IMG/VR virus record: IMGVR_UViG_3300032038_000015
Coordinates: 67,992 to 131,991 of that record
From: a virus
Lineage: Duplodnaviria; Caudoviricetes
Strand: one strand, 5' to 3'
Length of the DNA: 64,000 nucleotides
Shown here: piece by piece, positions 46,078-57,068 of the stretch
How positions within the stretch are numbered: the stretch's first letter is position 1
How the letters are laid out: each line of letters starts with the position of its first letter
Translations under genes and position numbers: made by a program
Notes under the pieces: model-generated
Told to the model about the DNA's origin: nothing
The model's database searches: none
Seen by the model: the letters and a program-made list of their open reading frames with translations, nothing else

Positions 46078-47193
46078 TTAAGATGCTTCTCGCAATCTCA
46101 AACCTTCTATTAATATATTCTCTGCTGCGTTAATATCTCTATCGTGTTTTGATCCGCATTGAGGACAAATCCATTCTCTAACTGATAAATCCTTAACACC
46201 TTTATTCTGATAACCACAACAACTACATATTTGAGAACTTGCAAAAAATCTATCTACTTTTATATATTCTCTGCCATACCATTCGGCTTTATAAGATAAT
46301 TGTCTGGTTAATTCATACCAACTACAATCAGATACCGATTTTGCAAGATTATGATTTTGCCGCATACCTTCTATATTCAAATTCTCACTCACTATCACTT
46401 GGTTTTCGTTTATAAGTTTGTGAGAAATCTGATGTAAATTATAAAGTCTGATATTACGAATTTTCTCATATACCTTTGCTACTTTTATTCTCTGTTTTTC
46501 ATAGTTAGCACTACCTTTTTGTTTCTTAGCAAGTCTTCTTTGCTCTTTTGCTAACTTATCTTCGTATCTTTTAGTAGTGAGAATATTATTAAATTTTTCA
46601 CCATCAGAAGTGATAAGTAAATCTTTAATGCCTAAATCAATACCAATTGAATTATCACTCTTTGGTAGATATTCGTATTCTGTTTCAAATAATATTGAAG
46701 CATAATATTTGCCAGATGGATCTTGTGAAATTGTTGCAGAACTAATTCTTCCAATGATCTTGCGGCTATATGCCATTTTCAGCATCCCTACTTTAGGAAC
46801 TCTTAATTTATTGCCTTCAATACGAACTGTATGGCTACCATTATTTACACTATTGTTAGTTTTGTACGATTTTCTACAATTTTTCTTATTCTTAAATTTG
46901 GGATATCCTCTATTTTCAGTAAAAAATTTTTTATAAGCATTATCCATATTAAAAACAGAATTTGTTAGAGCATATTTATCCACCTCTTTTAACCATTCGT
47001 ACTCTTTTTTAAGAACACGATTTACATAATTGTTGCAATCAGTTTTGCTCATTGATACGTTTTCTGATTTATATTTGTCTTTTTTATAAGATAAACATTG
47101 GTTGTATACAAATCTTACACATCCAAAGGTTTTCTGAATCAGTTCTTCTTGCTCTTTGCTTGGATAAATTCTATATTTATAAGCCTTAAACAT
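46078..47193 (-). CDS. tnpB: TnpB RNA-guided nuclease (second copy, no recognisable IS ends)
   Basis: [14 protein letters not shown] / SENL / DRDINAA intact, zinc finger. Confidence 0.95.
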
Positions 47194-50381: not shown

Positions 50382-51395
50382 CTACTTTTTATTCATTTTC
50401 TTTACAAATTCACGATACTTCCTTGTATATTCGTAAGAATCTCCAAAAATATTATTAACAGCCTTATAAAGTTTTGGTTCATATTTTTGAATAATTTCAA
50501 GCTCATTCTCAAAATCTCTTCCAAATGGACAACCTGCACAACCTGTTCTTGGTAAGGCATAAACAACATAACAATCTGAATGCTCAACATTATAAGCGTT
50601 TTCATAATCAATTTTGTCAGAATCTTTATACCAAAATAGAGGTCTATAATTATCGCATCCATCATCGCCTTCACTAAAACACGACTTATAGGATGTGGCT
50701 CTAACACCACCTTCTGCTCTTCGCACACCAACTATATTTAATTCATATGTATTTTCTTTTATTAATTTATGAGAAACGTCCTTTTTTGCATACTGACAAC
50801 ATTTTGATGAAATTTTAAATGTTGGTGGATTTTCAATAATAAACTCTTTAAGCCATTTATTATTTGCAATATTAAAAGCATTCGATTTCTTTAAATTACA
50901 CCACCACAGCAAAGCAGCTTTACACTTAGGATATTCCTTATATAATTCATCAAACGATTTATCTTCCCATTTAAAATCATGTCTTTGAAGTCTATCTATA
51001 TATTCAGCAGCTTGTTTGTTTATAAACGGTTGACCATATTGCTTACATGATAACGGAATAGGCTTAATTGCCTTATATGGTTTTATCATTATATTATATT
51101 TATTTTCCAAATACTTTAAATGTTCTTTAGTCGCTTGATATTCAAGACCAGTATCAAACCAAACATAATCAACTTTATTATCTTTGTCACATCGCCACAC
51201 AATATCAAGCATCACATCGCTATCCGATCCACCTGAAATGGAACATACAATTTTCTTATATTTTGGGCTGTTAATTTTTGACCATGCTCTAACCAAATTA
51301 TCACCAATAATTTGATTACGTGGGCATGTATTTAATAATTCATCAAGCGTTTTTGCTTTTCGTAATGAATTAGTATTTTTATTGTTTGTAGTCAT
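50382..51395 (-). CDS. PAPS-reductase-family (PP-loop, Fe-S) protein
   Basis: SISGGSDS, FDTGLE, KCC..KK, GVRRAE, RTGCAGCPF. Confidence 0.85.
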   Translation of the reverse strand: MTTNNKNTNSLRKAKTLDELLNTCPRNQIIGDNLVRAWSKINSPKYKKIVCSISGGSDSDVMLDIVWRCDKDNKVDYVWFDTGLEYQATKEHLKYLENKYNIMIKPYKAIKPIPLSCKQYGQPFINKQAAEYIDRLQRHDFKWEDKSFDELYKEYPKCKAALLWWCNLKKSNAFNIANNKWLKEFIIENPPTFKISSKCCQYAKKDVSHKLIKENTYELNIVGVRRAEGGVRATSYKSCFSEGDDGCDNYRPLFWYKDSDKIDYENAYNVEHSDCYVVYALPRTGCAGCPFGRDFENELEIIQKYEPKLYKAVNNIFGDSYEYTRKYREFVKKMNKK

Positions 51396-53181: not shown

Positions 53182-53263
53182 TTTTTGTATTATTTAAAAT
53201 TCTGATGAGTGATTATATCCTCACCATTCAGATGCAAAATCACCTGCAATCTTTCGATTGATT
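53182..53263 (-). ncRNA. Fused omegaRNA-like guide scaffold downstream of cas12f-like gene (scaffold C)
   Basis: CAATC-GAAA-GATTG, CAGGTG-ATTTTG-CATCTG, AAT, GTGAG-GAT-ATA-ATC-ACTCAT, then terminal CAAAA complementary to the ATTTTG loop. Homologous to both upstream tracrRNA-like elements. Confidence 0.75.
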
Positions 53264-53272
53264 AAGTAGCTC

Positions 53273-54661
53273 TTAGTCGACTTTATTATTCTCTGAACCA
53301 TTCTTGTTCTGTTCATACTTTTCAGAGATATCATAATATTTTCTTGCTTCCTGTTTACTCTTTTCAGTAACTTGTCCACTTTCCATCCAAAGAGTTGACT
53401 TTGCAATATTTCTAGCAGCATTAAAATCAGCATTAAAACCAGTTTTCTCATATTTCTTATGACTATCACAATTCTCATTCGCACATTCAAATACTGACTG
53501 TGATTTTCTCTGACCAAATTCCCAATTACCACATACACTGCAAATCTGTGATGTATAACAAGGATTGATTTTTCTTACTTCTATTCCGTATTTAGCTGCT
53601 TTATATGTAATATAATCTTGAAGCTTATAATAACTCCAATTTCTCAGGATAAAATCGCTTGTATCATATCCTGTTAAATTCTCAATATTTATGTATTTAG
53701 CATTATGCTTTAAAGCAAAATCAACAACTCTCTTACTTATCATGTGACAATATGTTTCAACAAAATGTGCTTCTGCTTTCTGTAATCTTTCCAATGCTTT
53801 CAATTTCTTTGCTCTACCATGACCGCCAGAAGTATTTCTCAATGACTTCTGTAATCTTCTTCTCTGAGCTTGCATTTTAGTTCTTATTCTTAGAAAGTCA
53901 TCTGCATTTCCAATTGCCAATCTCTCGTAAAGATTATTATTTAAAGCACACATCGCAGGAACAGCAATACCTAAATCAACACCTACTACTGTATTTTCGT
54001 CTAACTCTCTAAGTTGTTTTGGAATAGATATTGAAAGATTCAAAATGATTGATTTACCATCAATTTCAATACTGCTTCCTTGCACTTTATAATTCTCTTC
54101 TAATATATTTTGTACAACAGATCTTAACTCTAATGACCTATGCGGATTACCAAATACAACCTTGAATACAATTTTATTAACCCACTTGACATATACAGCT
54201 AAATCAGAATCGTTAATTTTATCTAAGAAATCCTGATAAGTTTCATATTCGTGATAAAAAGTTAAGTTTCTACCTCTTGTAATAAGTGGATTGGTTCTCT
54301 TATAATTAGTTACTGTTCGTTCACCTTTAGCCAATCCATTCTTTAAAGCTGTGCTGAAATCCTGCTTGACTTTTTGCGTAACAGCTGATGGTGTATCTAC
54401 GCCTGTTGCAAAATCAATATCTTTTAATATAATATTAGAATTTGTCATTATTTCTTTCTGTCTTGCCTTAAATTCTTCATTCTTAATATCACGATTATAT
54501 TTGTAATATTCACTCATAAGCTGTCCCATAAGTAAATTACACGCTTGATACTGAGCATACTGACCATTTCTAATAAAGTCATATACTCTATTGATTTCCT
54601 CCTTATCTCCTACTGGAAATAATTTAATTTTTCTACAAATTGTCATTCTATCGTTTCCCAT
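53273..54661 (-). CDS. cas12f: Cas12f-like (type V-F / TnpB-derived) compact RNA-guided nuclease, 462 aa
   Basis: RuvC I VGVDLG, bridge helix, GGHGR.KKL motif, RuvC II NIENL, NWSYY.LQ..I.YKA, TSQ.CS.CG zinc finger, RuvC III NADFNAARNIA. Adjacent mini-arrays. Confidence 0.8.
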   Translation of the reverse strand: MGNDRMTICRKIKLFPVGDKEEINRVYDFIRNGQYAQYQACNLLMGQLMSEYYKYNRDIKNEEFKARQKEIMTNSNIILKDIDFATGVDTPSAVTQKVKQDFSTALKNGLAKGERTVTNYKRTNPLITRGRNLTFYHEYETYQDFLDKINDSDLAVYVKWVNKIVFKVVFGNPHRSLELRSVVQNILEENYKVQGSSIEIDGKSIILNLSISIPKQLRELDENTVVGVDLGIAVPAMCALNNNLYERLAIGNADDFLRIRTKMQAQRRRLQKSLRNTSGGHGRAKKLKALERLQKAEAHFVETYCHMISKRVVDFALKHNAKYINIENLTGYDTSDFILRNWSYYKLQDYITYKAAKYGIEVRKINPCYTSQICSVCGNWEFGQRKSQSVFECANENCDSHKKYEKTGFNADFNAARNIAKSTLWMESGQVTEKSKQEARKYYDISEKYEQNKNGSENNKVD

Positions 54662-54674
54662 AATTTGTAAATCT

Positions 54675-54834
54675 CCTTTATATTTTCATAATTTTAAATA
54701 TGTCTAAAACTAAAAACAAAGAATATCAGACATTTAAAGTTTTATATCTATGTAATTTTATATACATCTAAAACAATTGAATCAAATTTATCTTTATCAC
54801 TTAAGTTTTATACCTATGTATATGCATCTAAAAC
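54675..54834 (-). CRISPR. Mini-array A: 3 repeats (GTTTTAGATGTATATAAAATTACATAGATATAAAAC type), 2 spacers
   Basis: Repeats at 54805-54834 (6-nt deletion), 54739-54774 and degenerate 54675-54710. Spacers 54775-54804 (30 nt) and 54711-54738 (28 nt). Confidence 0.8.
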
Positions 54835-54916
54835 CTCAAACTTATTACATAGATTTTCAATGAGTCGCATTGCGCTCACGATTCGGCAGTAAAATCTACC
54901 GCAATAGAATTGATTT
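54835..54916 (-). ncRNA. tracrRNA-like scaffold A
   Basis: CGGTAG-ATTTTA-CTGCCG, AAT, GTGAG-CGC-AAT-GCG-ACTCAT, anti-repeat ATCTATGTAAT complementary to repeat A. Confidence 0.78.
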
Positions 54917-54934
54917 TAATTTCATTTATATATT

Positions 54935-55102
54935 CTCTTAATAAGATGTAATTTTATGTGCTCTCAAAACTGTTGCTCATAACAATAGATTCAAGTGACG
55001 CATTTTGTTAATATGTAATTTCATATACTTCCAAAACAAGATGGTTCATTTCAATGAGTTCCTGAAATTTTGTTAATATGTAATTTCATATACTTCCAAA
55101 AC
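54935..55102 (-). CRISPR. Mini-array B: 3 repeats (GTTTTGGAAGTATATGAAATTACATATTAACAAAAT), 2 spacers
   Basis: Identical 36-mers at 55067-55102 and 55002-55037, degenerate copy 54935-54970. Spacers 55038-55066 (29 nt) and 54971-55001 (31 nt). Confidence 0.85.
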
Positions 55103-55195
55103 CCCAAATTACATACAAATTACATACTTTTCAGTGAGTGGAATTACCCTCACTATTCGGACTCAAAATAGCCCGTAGTCAAAAGACTAATGATT
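55103..55195 (-). ncRNA. tracrRNA-like scaffold B
   Basis: TAGTC-TTTT-GACTA, CGGGCT-ATTTTG-AGTCCG, AAT, GTGAG-GG-TAATT-CC-ACTCAC, anti-repeat TATGTAATTT (tandemly duplicated) complementary to repeat B. Confidence 0.78.
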
Positions 55196-55415
55196 ATAGG
55201 ATAAACTGGCTTGAATTAGCCAAATAGATTTGTTACAATAGAACAAATATAGTTTATCCTATATTTTATTCTCTGTAGAACAGATTGTTAGGTCGCCAAA
55301 CTTGTGCAATCTGTTCTACTGTTTTTTGTTTCAATATCTAAATAATATTCATTCGTTAATGGATTTACATATATTCGATTATCAGGTGAGTCATAATCAC
55401 AACGGTTACACATCT

Positions 55416-55982
55416 TTATTCTCCACTCTTAATGATTTCTTCTAATGTTCTTGGCGTGTAATTCATATAATTCTTCATACATCCGACATTCCACATATTA
55501 CATGGCTTATCATATAAAGCTGTCATCTGATATTTTACTTGCTGTATTATATTATCTTCAAAACCTGTATGTACATGACCGTAGAGATGGTAGCTTCTGT
55601 AGTAGTGATTCTTAAAGCAAGGAATTGGATAATGGCACAGAACTACAATTTTACCATCACCAATATCGAGTTCCTTGTAATCGGTAATTTCACAGAATCT
55701 ACTCTGTAATTCCCTATTTTTTAATAACTTGCCATCATGATTGCCCTTAATTAGATGTATATTCCCATTCAAATTGTTAAAAATTTCAATAGTTTTTGTT
55801 GTGTTGTACCACGAAATATCTCCAAGCAAATATACGTCATCATCAATTCCGACTGTATTGTTCCAATTTTTAATAATCGTTTCGTCATTCTCTTCAATTG
55901 ATTTAAAAGGTCTGTTGTCAAATGCCATGCAGTTTTTATGTCCAAAATGTAAATCTGATATAAAATAATTCATACTTTTCAC
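55416..55982 (-). CDS. Calcineurin-like metallophosphoesterase
   Basis: SDLHFGH, LGD, GNHD, CHYP, GHVH. Confidence 0.9.
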   Translation of the reverse strand: MKSMNYFISDLHFGHKNCMAFDNRPFKSIEENDETIIKNWNNTVGIDDDVYLLGDISWYNTTKTIEIFNNLNGNIHLIKGNHDGKLLKNRELQSRFCEITDYKELDIGDGKIVVLCHYPIPCFKNHYYRSYHLYGHVHTGFEDNIIQQVKYQMTALYDKPCNMWNVGCMKNYMNYTPRTLEEIIKSGE

Positions 55983-57068
55983 CTACTCATTATTCTTCAA
56001 TAAGAATTCAGGACTAACCGCTTTAAATGACTGCTTTCCATCTTCGCTTCTGAATACAATTCCTTCTCTGAGAGTATCGTATAACTGACTCTTACCTGTT
56101 GCATATTCAAGAACTTCTGGTACGGTCATTCCTTTAATAGGTGCATCTTCAGATAAAATAGGAACGAACTTTAACCCTAAATCATTTACAATTTTCTTTG
56201 CTTCTACAGATCCGACTCGTCCACTTGGATAAATCAGATTGAAAATATATAAATCTGGTTCTGTAACATGATATTTATTACTCTGAACATTGGATGCAAC
56301 ACATTCTCCTTGAATTGCTACCCACTCATTATCTCCAATCAGCTTATGAAGAACCTCTTCAATGTTGTATTTCTCAGCAACACTCCAAAATGAAGATGTA
56401 TCTTTTTTCCACTTTCTGAGATTTCTTGAACATACTGCAAAATCATATGTATCCTTGTTCCAAAAATGTTTACCTTTTACTCGCTGTAATGTAAATGAAC
56501 CACTCTGCCCATCAACCTTTTCAGTTGCAATCCACTTACAGTCCATATTCAGATAGAAAGGTGCATTCTGAATTCTTGTTTCGTCAGTCTTACTAATAAA
56601 ACTTGGAAAGCCTTTGGCTTGTTTCTTTGGTAATACAAGCTTTCTAAACCAAGCCATTCTCATTAAAAATTCAGGATATTTCTTCGCAGGTGTCTTAGTA
56701 TTTTCTGTATCTACCTCTTCCTTATCCATTGTTGGCTCATATTGTGTAATACCAAGAATCTCTGTTACATCATCTCCAATGTTATATTCTCCTTCTGGAA
56801 GAATTGATAATGGGAATACAATTCCCTGGCTGATCACACCTGCCATCTTCATTGTCTTAATGCGGAATTTCTTACTTCTTAAAAATTCAAACTCAGGCTT
56901 TTCAGGGAATACAGAATCAATCTCTGCAAATACAACCTTATCTCCTACCTTAAAATGCTTCTGAACAATTACTGTCCAACCTAATACTGTTGCTAATACG
57001 ATTCTATCCTTACCCTCAATCGGGATAATAGAATTAATTTCTTCAATATGCGCTAATGCTCTTGCCAT
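55983..57068 (-). CDS. RNA ligase (Rnl2/DRB0094-like, N-terminal OB fold)
   Basis: EIDS, SQG, KTDETRIQN, TEKVDG, QGE, EGIVFR, SFKAVS. Confidence 0.88.
   Translation of the reverse strand: MARALAHIEEINSIIPIEGKDRIVLATVLGWTVIVQKHFKVGDKVVFAEIDSVFPEKPEFEFLRSKKFRIKTMKMAGVISQGIVFPLSILPEGEYNIGDDVTEILGITQYEPTMDKEEVDTENTKTPAKKYPEFLMRMAWFRKLVLPKKQAKGFPSFISKTDETRIQNAPFYLNMDCKWIATEKVDGQSGSFTLQRVKGKHFWNKDTYDFAVCSRNLRKWKKDTSSFWSVAEKYNIEEVLHKLIGDNEWVAIQGECVASNVQSNKYHVTEPDLYIFNLIYPSGRVGSVEAKKIVNDLGLKFVPILSEDAPIKGMTVPEVLEYATGKSQLYDTLREGIVFRSEDGKQSFKAVSPEFLLKNNE

Follow-up and report, generated by a model that had tools for sequence, protein, structure and literature searches.

The closest described relatives of the system analysed here are the type V-F1 CRISPR (short palindromic repeats that are clustered and regularly interspaced) systems of Clostridia, represented by the solved enzymes CnCas12f1 (8HR5) and RhCas12f (9NZP), and Cas12f enzymes in general prefer protospacer adjacent motifs (PAMs) rich in T or in C on the 5' side of the target (PMC13186708); for CnCas12f1, 'C-rich PAM specificity' is named in the title of the structural study (Su et al. 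2024, cited in PMC13186708). The guide RNA of RhCas12f, resolved by cryo-electron microscopy (cryo-EM), starts at its 5' end with a stem carrying an AUUUA loop, followed by GAAGUC, a second stem (UGAGGGC...GCCACUCG) with a bulged A, and GAAA, and the end of its repeat, UAAAU, complements its own stem-1 loop (PMC13186708 supplement). CRISPR systems are also encoded by phages, including the type I-F system with which ICP1 attacks PLE and the systems of huge phages, many of which lack adaptation genes (PMC11656645), and no phage Cas12f was reported in a survey of 741,692 phage genomes (PMC12676247). The present analysis concerns a module on the minus strand of a 64,000-nucleotide (nt) stretch of gut-phage DNA (the window), which is the final 64 kb (positions 67,992 to 131,991) of the 131,991-bp IMG/VR virus record IMGVR_UViG_3300032038_000015 (Caudoviricetes; 32% GC; CheckV completeness 79%). 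This module is best explained, with a probability of about 85%, as a phage type V-F1 CRISPR system without an adaptation module, in which one Cas12f1 nuclease is accompanied by several cassettes of trans-activating CRISPR RNA (tracrRNA, or tracr) and mini-array, two intact and one decayed in the window, aimed at temperate phages.

The nuclease and its guide cassettes

The nuclease gene (53273..54661, minus strand) encodes P0001, a cas12f1-type protein of 462 amino acids (aa) that matches Cas12f1-like_TNB in Pfam (4.7e-16) and guided_TnpB in NCBIfam (3.5e-49, 168 bits). In a search of all solved structures its best matches were CnCas12f1 (E 8e-87, 295 bits) and RhCas12f (E 3e-82, 280 bits), with other Cas12f enzymes next and ISDra2 TnpB (E 0.009, 18 bits) more than 270 bits behind the Cas12f1 enzymes. 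A column check found the RuvC triad (D229, E327 and D412) and the four zinc-finger cysteines (CCCC) intact, in line with the D-E-D triad read by a first-pass annotation of the sequence letters. Because of these nearest solved structures and catalytic residues, the effector is classed, as far as its sequence tells, as a type V-F1 Cas12f1 of the C-rich-PAM clade and not as a transposon TnpB; its length lies within the 400-700 aa of type V-F1 effectors, its RuvC D-E-D residues and zinc finger are in place and its nearest validated enzymes are Cas12f1. The proposal of a phage-borne Cas12f-like nuclease is thus borne out by the matches to 8HR5 and 9NZP. Among GenBank phages (INPHARED), the locus had no nucleotide match and the nearest protein relative was 37% identical.

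The gene is present in one copy in the genome, besides one distant TnpB-like open reading frame (ORF; window ~46108-46647, minus strand; G000:C1:114099-114638, locus L002). This 372-aa open frame is 30% identical to P0001 residues 226-421 and is unrelated to the CRISPR module.

Five homologues (P0020, P0021, P0023, P0026 and P0038; 66-74% identity) carry D229N in RuvC motif I (VVGVNLG), and two members of this subclade also have D412 changed to E or N. From these substitutions they are probably nuclease-dead derivatives, which may act through binding and not cutting.

The order on the minus strand is tracr B, array B, tracr A, array A, nuclease ORF and scaffold C, the same elements in the same order as listed in the first-pass annotation. 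A covariance model built from related cassettes found exactly three copies in the window (B, A and C), matching the three paralogous scaffolds that had been proposed, and no Rfam family matched the region at E up to 1. The first cassette comprises tracrRNA B (55103..55179, minus strand; 77 nt; covariance-model match 55067-55179, 114 bits), with the stem-1 loop ATTTTG, the second stem GTGAGGG/CCACTCAC, the anti-repeat GTATGTAATTT in duplicate and the junction TTTGGG, and mini-array B (54935..55102, minus strand), which has the form repeat-spacer-repeat-spacer-degenerate repeat. The first two repeats of array B (55102-55067 and 55037-55002) are identical 36-nt sequences and the third (54970-54935) is degenerate; between them lie spacer B1 (55038..55066, minus strand, 29 nt) and spacer B2 (54971..55001, minus strand, 31 nt). 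The second cassette comprises tracrRNA A (54835..54905, minus strand; 71 nt; covariance-model match 54805-54905, 88.5 bits), with the stem-1 loop ATTTTA, the second stem GTGAGCGC/GCGACTCA, a single anti-repeat and the junction TTTGAG, and mini-array A (54675..54834, minus strand), which has the same form as array B. Its repeats lie at 54834-54805 (30 nt, shortened by an internal deletion of 6 nt), 54774-54739 (36 nt) and 54710-54675 (degenerate, running into the ribosome-binding site of the nuclease gene), and they enclose spacer A1 (54775..54804, minus strand, 30 nt) and spacer A2 (54711..54738, minus strand, 28 nt). The anti-repeats read as ATCTATGTAAT in tracr A and TATGTAATTT in tracr B, and the stem-1 loops ATTTTA (A) and ATTTTG (B) face repeats that end in TAAAAC (A) and CAAAAT (B).

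Anti-repeats occur as tandem pairs in some tracrs: GTATGTAATTT is present twice in tracr B (55179-55103), ATCTATGTTAAT and ATCTGTGTGAT stand together in tracr C of a close relative (L004:4412-4499), and tracr A has one copy. The doubling might provide alternative registers, or one copy for pairing in cis and the other for pairing in trans.

The structure of the scaffolds was examined in an alignment of 30 cassettes (tracr and first repeat) from 29 loci, namely the window, 22 loci with nucleases 96-98% identical to P0001 and six loci at 50-61% identity. Four helices were tested: stem 1, stem 2, the anti-repeat:repeat duplex, and a pseudoknot in which the stem-1 loop pairs with the repeat's final 5 nt. 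Pairing was maintained in 96.9% of cells, against 28-47% when the partners were slid by 1-3 columns, changes on both sides were seen in 18 of the 30 pairs, and the covariation score was 0.474, against at most 0.073 in the slid controls. All four helices covary, including the pseudoknot, which was 100% paired; two of its five pairs show compensatory changes (UA/CG and GC/AU alternatives). The loop and repeat-end combinations are ATTTTG with CAAAA, ATTTTA with TAAAA, ATTTCG with CGAAA, ATTTCA with TGAAA and, in an extra cassette of L026, CTTTG with CAAAG. The covarying pseudoknot of the first-pass annotation, proposed from ATTTTA/TAAAA and ATTTTG/CAAAAT, is therefore real, being paired in all 30 cassettes.

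The phage scaffolds have the layout of the RhCas12f guide (stems 1 and 2, the bulged A and the pseudoknot), shortened to 71-77 nt. They and the 5' part of that guide RNA are homologous, and the covarying pseudoknot is the one already known from Cas12f. The tracr features of type V-F1, that is an anti-repeat, the Cas12f stems and a pseudoknot to the 3' end of the repeat, are all present. Effectors of this type work as an asymmetric homodimer on one guide RNA. This likeness to the 5' part of the RhCas12f guide RNA goes against the suggestion that omegaRNA copies were split by CRISPR repeats.

Spacer turnover, targets and PAM

About 46 different spacers were counted, comprising 37 unique spacers in arrays A and B (window and 22 loci), three from array C and six older spacers that were added to the count by hand. 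Spacers differ among strains whose nucleases are 96-98% identical, and the differences are polarised: gene-proximal spacers are common to strains, among them the conserved ACTTGCG... spacer that closes array A and the ATCTGGCAAC... spacer of array B, and tracr-proximal spacers are novel. Some spacers are overlapping independent captures, sp7 and sp27 being offset by 4 nt and sp17 and sp26 lying on opposite strands. Because the tracr-proximal spacers are new and the gene-proximal ones shared, new spacers appear to enter at the tracr-repeat junction, and the 3' end of the tracr appears to double as a leader. The first-pass annotation had described a natural single guide with no leader; the tracr does abut its first repeat, but its 3' end behaves as a leader. 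The arrays of variable spacers that adjoin the effector in type V-F1 systems are represented in the window by two arrays.

Spacer sp11 (30 nt) is shared by the A arrays of L005 and L006 (duplicated in L006) and by array C of L024 (4536-4565). Since it is found in both array A and array C, spacers move or are copied between cassettes.

Twelve distinct protospacers were found by exact-match scans of IMG/VR followed by local comparison, and they lie in temperate siphovirus-like phages (G001, G006 and G008-G010). Three of the four window spacers (B1, B2 and A1) matched phage contigs, and all three match a single 11.6-kb contig, L045. Spacer B1 matches an integrase gene without mismatches in three IMG/VR contigs (L043:11778, L044:9834 and L045:11224), with CCA as the 5' flank. 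Spacer B2, which gave no match in the exact scan of IMG/VR, was matched by local comparison with one mismatch to L045:2150, also after CCA, and spacer A1 matches L045:1131 with two mismatches after CCT. Spacers of the relatives match the same contig family as well as two larger targets, G001 (28.6 kb, classed as a provirus), in which the protospacer lies in an integrase-family gene, and G006 (41.9 kb, 100% complete), which encodes a 1,992-aa tape-measure protein. The targets G008-G010 encode an integrase, a major head protein and a scaffold protein, and the target major head protein is ~30% identical to those of Gram-positive siphophages. The GC content of G006 (31.7%) is close to the 32% of the present phage, and that of contig L045 is 37%. 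PICI-like satellites were considered as targets on account of contig size (10-13 kb, CheckV 56-69%) and were set aside, as phrog_8308 is common to the target contigs and the complete 41.9-kb tailed phage that other spacers match.

For all 12 protospacers, at least one target has CC(A/T) directly 5' of the match, read on the spacer-sense strand, against a background frequency of 0.021 (P ~7e-21). The T-rich or C-rich 5' PAM on the non-target strand that is expected of type V-F1 can thus be read from natural targets, and it is C-rich like the PAM published for CnCas12f1, which with RhCas12f is nearest to P0001. The PAM lies on the repeat- and leader-proximal side, where type V and type I systems need it. 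Outside the arrays, the phage genome contains no match to any spacer. Two array queries against GenBank phages (INPHARED) gave no spacer target, IMG/VR scans with the sp7/27 core and with sp11 returned the arrays themselves only, and the core of the sp17/26 protospacer was absent from the species-representative genomes searched. The spacers are thus not invariant, nor are they without protospacers; they vary by strain and match temperate phages next to a consistent PAM, which agrees with the earlier idea of a multiplexed inter-phage weapon.

The sp31 protospacer is present in two forms. In G006 (L063:8043-8072) it is a perfect match with a TCA flank, and in G007 (L053:3174-3203) it has the CCA flank and three PAM-distal mismatches. 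These differences look like escape variants.

A mechanism consistent with these observations would begin with transcription of each cassette from the tracr into the array. The tracr would provide stems 1 and 2, its stem-1 loop would form the pseudoknot with the last 5 nt of the repeat, its anti-repeat would pair with the repeat core, and after processing the guide would be the spacer that is 3'-adjacent to the repeat. The first unit, in which tracr, repeat and spacer are contiguous, could serve as a natural single guide, and later units would need the tracr in trans. The complex of nuclease and RNA would then cut DNA that carries a 5'-CC(A/T) PAM. The guides would target temperate siphovirus-like phages of the same low-GC host, probably a Gram-positive bacterium, with inter-phage competition or attack on resident prophages as the benefit, and spacers would join at the tracr-repeat junction through an integrase from outside the phage, presumably that of the host.

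Several observations weigh against this explanation. Targets have so far come to light for only about one spacer in four, and spacer A2 is among those that lack one: no match was found at E<=0.01 in the three contigs compared by BLAST, nor with up to 5-6 mismatches in five target records or in the phage's own genome, and this spacer was not scanned alone against IMG/VR. Single-sequence folding gave z-scores of only -1.3 to -2.1 and misfolded tracr A, and a promoter and terminator scan returned signals no commoner than in shuffled sequence. The window itself has defects, cassette C being without an array and the first repeat of array A having its 6-nt deletion, and a search with a degenerate form of the repeat pattern found no such array, and hence no donor array, in 185,579 species-representative genomes. 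By duplex energies, the cognate repeat is the best partner of each tracr in the window, but in L004 repeat A is a better partner for tracr C than repeat C is, so that strict orthogonality of the cassettes was rejected. The earlier statement of a match between each tracr and its own repeat is correct for the pseudoknot of most cassettes, but only partly so for the anti-repeat duplex, for which cross-pairing is thermodynamically feasible.

Spacer acquisition, scaffold C and alternative explanations

The cas1, cas2 and cas4 genes that form the adaptation module of type V-F1 are absent from the locus, and no match to Cas1, Cas2 or Cas4 (PF01867, PF09827 and PF01930) was found in this phage (G000) or in its relatives G002-G005, four genomes of at least 98% completeness, which extends the absence of cas1 and cas2 seen in the first-pass annotation. 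Element-borne CRISPR systems have commonly lost their adaptation genes, and the locus is therefore regarded as a variant of type V-F1 and not excluded from it. As Cas1, Cas2 and Cas4 are missing from these five phage genomes, spacer acquisition must occur in trans, with an integrase from outside the phage that is presumably host-derived.

The site of acquisition shows a conserved motif: throughout the 30 cassettes the tracr closes with TTTGAG, rarely TTTGGG or TTTGAA, directly before GTTT, and the 36-nt repeats, which start with GTTTTAGA and end with AAAAC, together with the 30-nt spacers have dimensions that fit type II-A. In type II-A the leader ends in ATTTGAG/GTTT, and S. thermophilus needs this end together with the first repeat for adaptation, for which the two suffice (PMC5382924, PMC4330368). 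The TTTGAG|GTTT motif may serve to anchor an integrase, or it may have a role in the structure or processing of the RNA. Strict type II-A adaptation was not adopted, the PAM being on the opposite side of the spacer and no NGG being present after the 3' ends of the protospacers. It can be proposed, tentatively and with the odds well against it, that the 3' end of the tracr is a leader with a type II-A-style anchor, that host Cas1-Cas2 loads spacers into the phage type V array, and that the module moves between diverged phages and grows by cassette duplication. If true, this would be cross-type piracy of adaptation.

The distribution of the module is relevant to its mobility. Homology between the window and 22 relatives (L003-L024) is confined to ~55317-53182, that is to the module, and the flanking genes differ. 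Between this phage and the complete relative G004, 17% of the genome aligns with a mean identity of 82%, and the module is the second-longest shared block (1.9 kb at 90%). Because homology is confined to it and the flanks differ, the 2.1-kb module is a conserved cassette in otherwise mosaic phages, and its distribution suggests that it behaves as a mobile or exchangeable unit. The upstream edge of the module (55180..55321, minus strand) is marked by a perfect 13-bp hairpin at 55319-55275; this region also holds a second 13-bp hairpin at 55263-55195 and a weak promoter-like site at 55291-55263.

The genes around the module (window 55416-57068 and 50382-51395) encode a metallophosphatase, an RNA ligase (PHA02142 OB-fold and RNA_ligase) and a PAPS-reductase-domain protein, a neighbourhood that looks to be of the repair, modification or counter-defence type. 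The position of the module among such accessory genes is one reason to consider that its main purpose is directed against the host or its defences, by cutting resident prophages, removing superinfection exclusion or defence, or breaking the chromosome, as in the contest of ICP1 with PLE. The targets carry integrases, G001 is classed as a provirus and two independent protospacers lie in integrase genes. However, protospacers also lie in structural genes (the tape-measure gene and a stretch close to the head genes), the targets yielded no recognised defence gene, and the sp17/26 protospacer was not found in any species-representative genome searched. This purpose is possible but less probable than not; it is compatible with a type V-F1 system aimed at temperate phages and would only narrow the benefit that such a system confers.

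The remaining scaffold bears on the origin of the system. Cassette C (53182..53250, minus strand; covariance-model match 57 bits, E 6e-8) lies 23 nt past the stop codon of the nuclease gene and consists of tracr stems 1 and 2 joined to a half-repeat tail (...AATACAAAAA), with the anti-repeat and the array gone. Behind scaffold C, most close relatives have an anti-repeat, then the junction TTTGAG and then repeat C, which comes with 0-2 spacers, full tracr C and repeat C being present in L003-7, L010-11 and L016-24. The anti-repeat and array C are missing in the window and in five relatives, where the half-repeat tail runs into unrelated DNA. Because array C follows scaffold C in most close relatives, the form in the window reads best as a deletion derivative giving an omegaRNA-like fusion and not as an ancestral omegaRNA. 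Fusion of a tracr to a half-repeat, giving an omegaRNA-like molecule, has been documented for Cas12f-derived Sigma-TnpB loci (PMC10691335).

More distant relatives show larger numbers of cassettes. Three loci (L026, L028 and L029) carry 4-7 tandem tracr and mini-array cassettes each, and a contig of 233 kb encodes a 533-aa homologue whose gene is flanked by cassettes on either side. As these relatives also carry several cassettes, the possession of multiple private tracr-array cassettes is a trait of this phage-borne family. Homologues of 417 aa from mouse-gut phages (65% identity) have a lone scaffold 3' of the gene without a clear array, and may be an omegaRNA-like single-guide form of the same family. 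In three of these loci (L046-L048:7260-7340) the scaffold lies directly 3' of the 417-aa gene and is followed by ...CAAAAAG, a junction-like motif (TTATTGAGG|TTTTT) and then tRNA-like sequence.

The first-pass annotation took the locus for a TnpB-to-CRISPR intermediate, in which omegaRNA copies were recently split by repeats and scaffold C is the ancestral omegaRNA with a guide in the flanking DNA. The guided_TnpB match (168 bits), the small size of P0001 (462 aa), the lone 3' scaffolds of the 417-aa homologues and the existence of TnpB-derived CRISPR systems (TranC clades), one of them in a Caudoviricetes genome (bioRxiv 10.64898/2026.03.27.714800), agree with this reading, as does the location of scaffold C in the omegaRNA position directly 3' of the stop codon. 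That position is occupied by a scaffold with a half-repeat in the window; in relatives with 96-98% identical nucleases, however, it mostly holds a true array. The reading is made improbable by this array, by the closest characterised proteins, which are Cas12f1 enzymes (295 and 280 bits to CnCas12f1 and RhCas12f, against 18 to ISDra2 TnpB), by a tracr architecture like that of the RhCas12f guide RNA, and by the fact that fusion of tracr and half-repeat is a documented secondary event (PMC10691335). In addition, TnpB genes of IS200/IS605 lie in multicopy transposons with a TnpA (Y1 or serine) and LE/RE ends, whereas here the gene is a single copy and the phage genome contains no match to Y1_Tnp, the domain of Y1 TnpA, in a search that did not extend to serine recombinases.

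Finally, the notion that the arrays are inert relics or decoys, differing through phage recombination alone and no longer used by the nuclease, draws on the lack of adaptation genes, the degenerate terminal repeats, the loss of array C in the window, the recombination or shuffling implied by sp11 and the D229N subclade among the homologues, but is very improbable given that 12 of 12 protospacers have the PAM expected from the nearest characterised enzymes, that additions are polarised, that overlapping non-identical spacers derive from the same target site, that compensatory changes keep four helices paired in 30 cassettes and that the catalytic triad in the window is intact.

Comparison with known systems

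The module would represent, on sequence grounds, a working-looking Cas12f1 system carried by an ordinary-to-large phage (~130-186 kb) and directed against rival temperate phages, with natural targets and a PAM that can be read straight from metagenomes. It sharpens the question of how PAM-correct spacers are acquired by an element without cas1, cas2 and cas4. A 462-aa Cas12f with a natural tracr of 71-77 nt and a preference for CCN as PAM ranks among nature's most compact guide designs, and the natural cassette variants constitute a ready data set of compensatory mutations for guide engineering.

With the type V-F1 systems of Clostridia (CnCas12f1, RhCas12f) it shares a homologous effector, a 5' C-rich PAM, stem 1, stem 2, the loop-repeat pseudoknot and a guide located 3' of the repeat. 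It differs from them in being phage-borne and without cas1, cas2 and cas4, in having several tracr and mini-array cassettes, each with its own covarying tracr, in the tracr that abuts the first repeat on the same strand, and in the repeat itself (GTTTTAGA...AAAAC). Its tracrs (71-88 nt) are also about half the length of the ~128-nt tracr in the cryo-EM guide of RhCas12f.

Like other phage-encoded CRISPR systems, including those of ICP1, of huge phages and of Cas-lambda (PMC12141684), it combines its own effector with arrays against competing mobile elements. The effector here is a Cas12f1, unlike in those systems, for which a multi-cassette tracr layout has not been described, and the genome of ~130-186 kb is below the 'huge phage' range that is usual in reports of phage CRISPR. 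Cas12p ('Cas12 hacker', bioRxiv 10.1101/2025.01.20.633832) is likewise a phage-encoded miniature type V nuclease with a tracrRNA; it was rejected as an identity for P0001, as it has 500-700 aa and a GTN PAM and its structure (PDB 9JFS) matched P0001 only at E 0.003.

The omegaRNA arrays of Sigma-TnpB (Altae-Tran et al. 2023, PMC10691335) share the fusion of tracr and half-repeat (cassette C of the window) and the tandem duplication of guide units (L026, L028 and L029). In contrast to the phage nuclease, which is intact, Sigma-TnpB proteins have lost catalysis and are linked to genes for RpoE, relaxase and integrase, and most phage cassettes, unlike those arrays, keep true repeat-spacer arrays that turn over. 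TranC systems, including the phage-borne CauTranC9 (bioRxiv 10.64898/2026.03.27.714800), are ultra-compact TnpB-like nucleases that also lack adaptation genes and have a Caudoviricetes member with anti-phage spacers, whereas P0001 is nearest to Cas12f1 and not to an ISDra2-like TnpB, TranC, whose effectors are described as using both a CRISPR crRNA and a transposon-derived reRNA, having been compared by description only. The leader-repeat junction of type II-A shares TTTGAG|GTTT, 36-nt repeats and 30-nt spacers, but the effector here is of type V and the 5'-CCN PAM is leader-proximal, on the side opposite to that of type II-A.

The searchable literature yielded no case of one nuclease with several tracr-array cassettes in which each tracr co-evolves with its own repeat, in pseudoknot and anti-repeat alike, nor of a tracr that abuts its array and serves as its leader. 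Phage CRISPR systems without adaptation genes, Cas12f enzymes with C-rich PAMs, the Cas12f pseudoknot and the fusion of tracr and half-repeat are already known, as is the type of enzyme; what is new by comparison is spacer turnover without any acquisition genes, together with the cassette layout.

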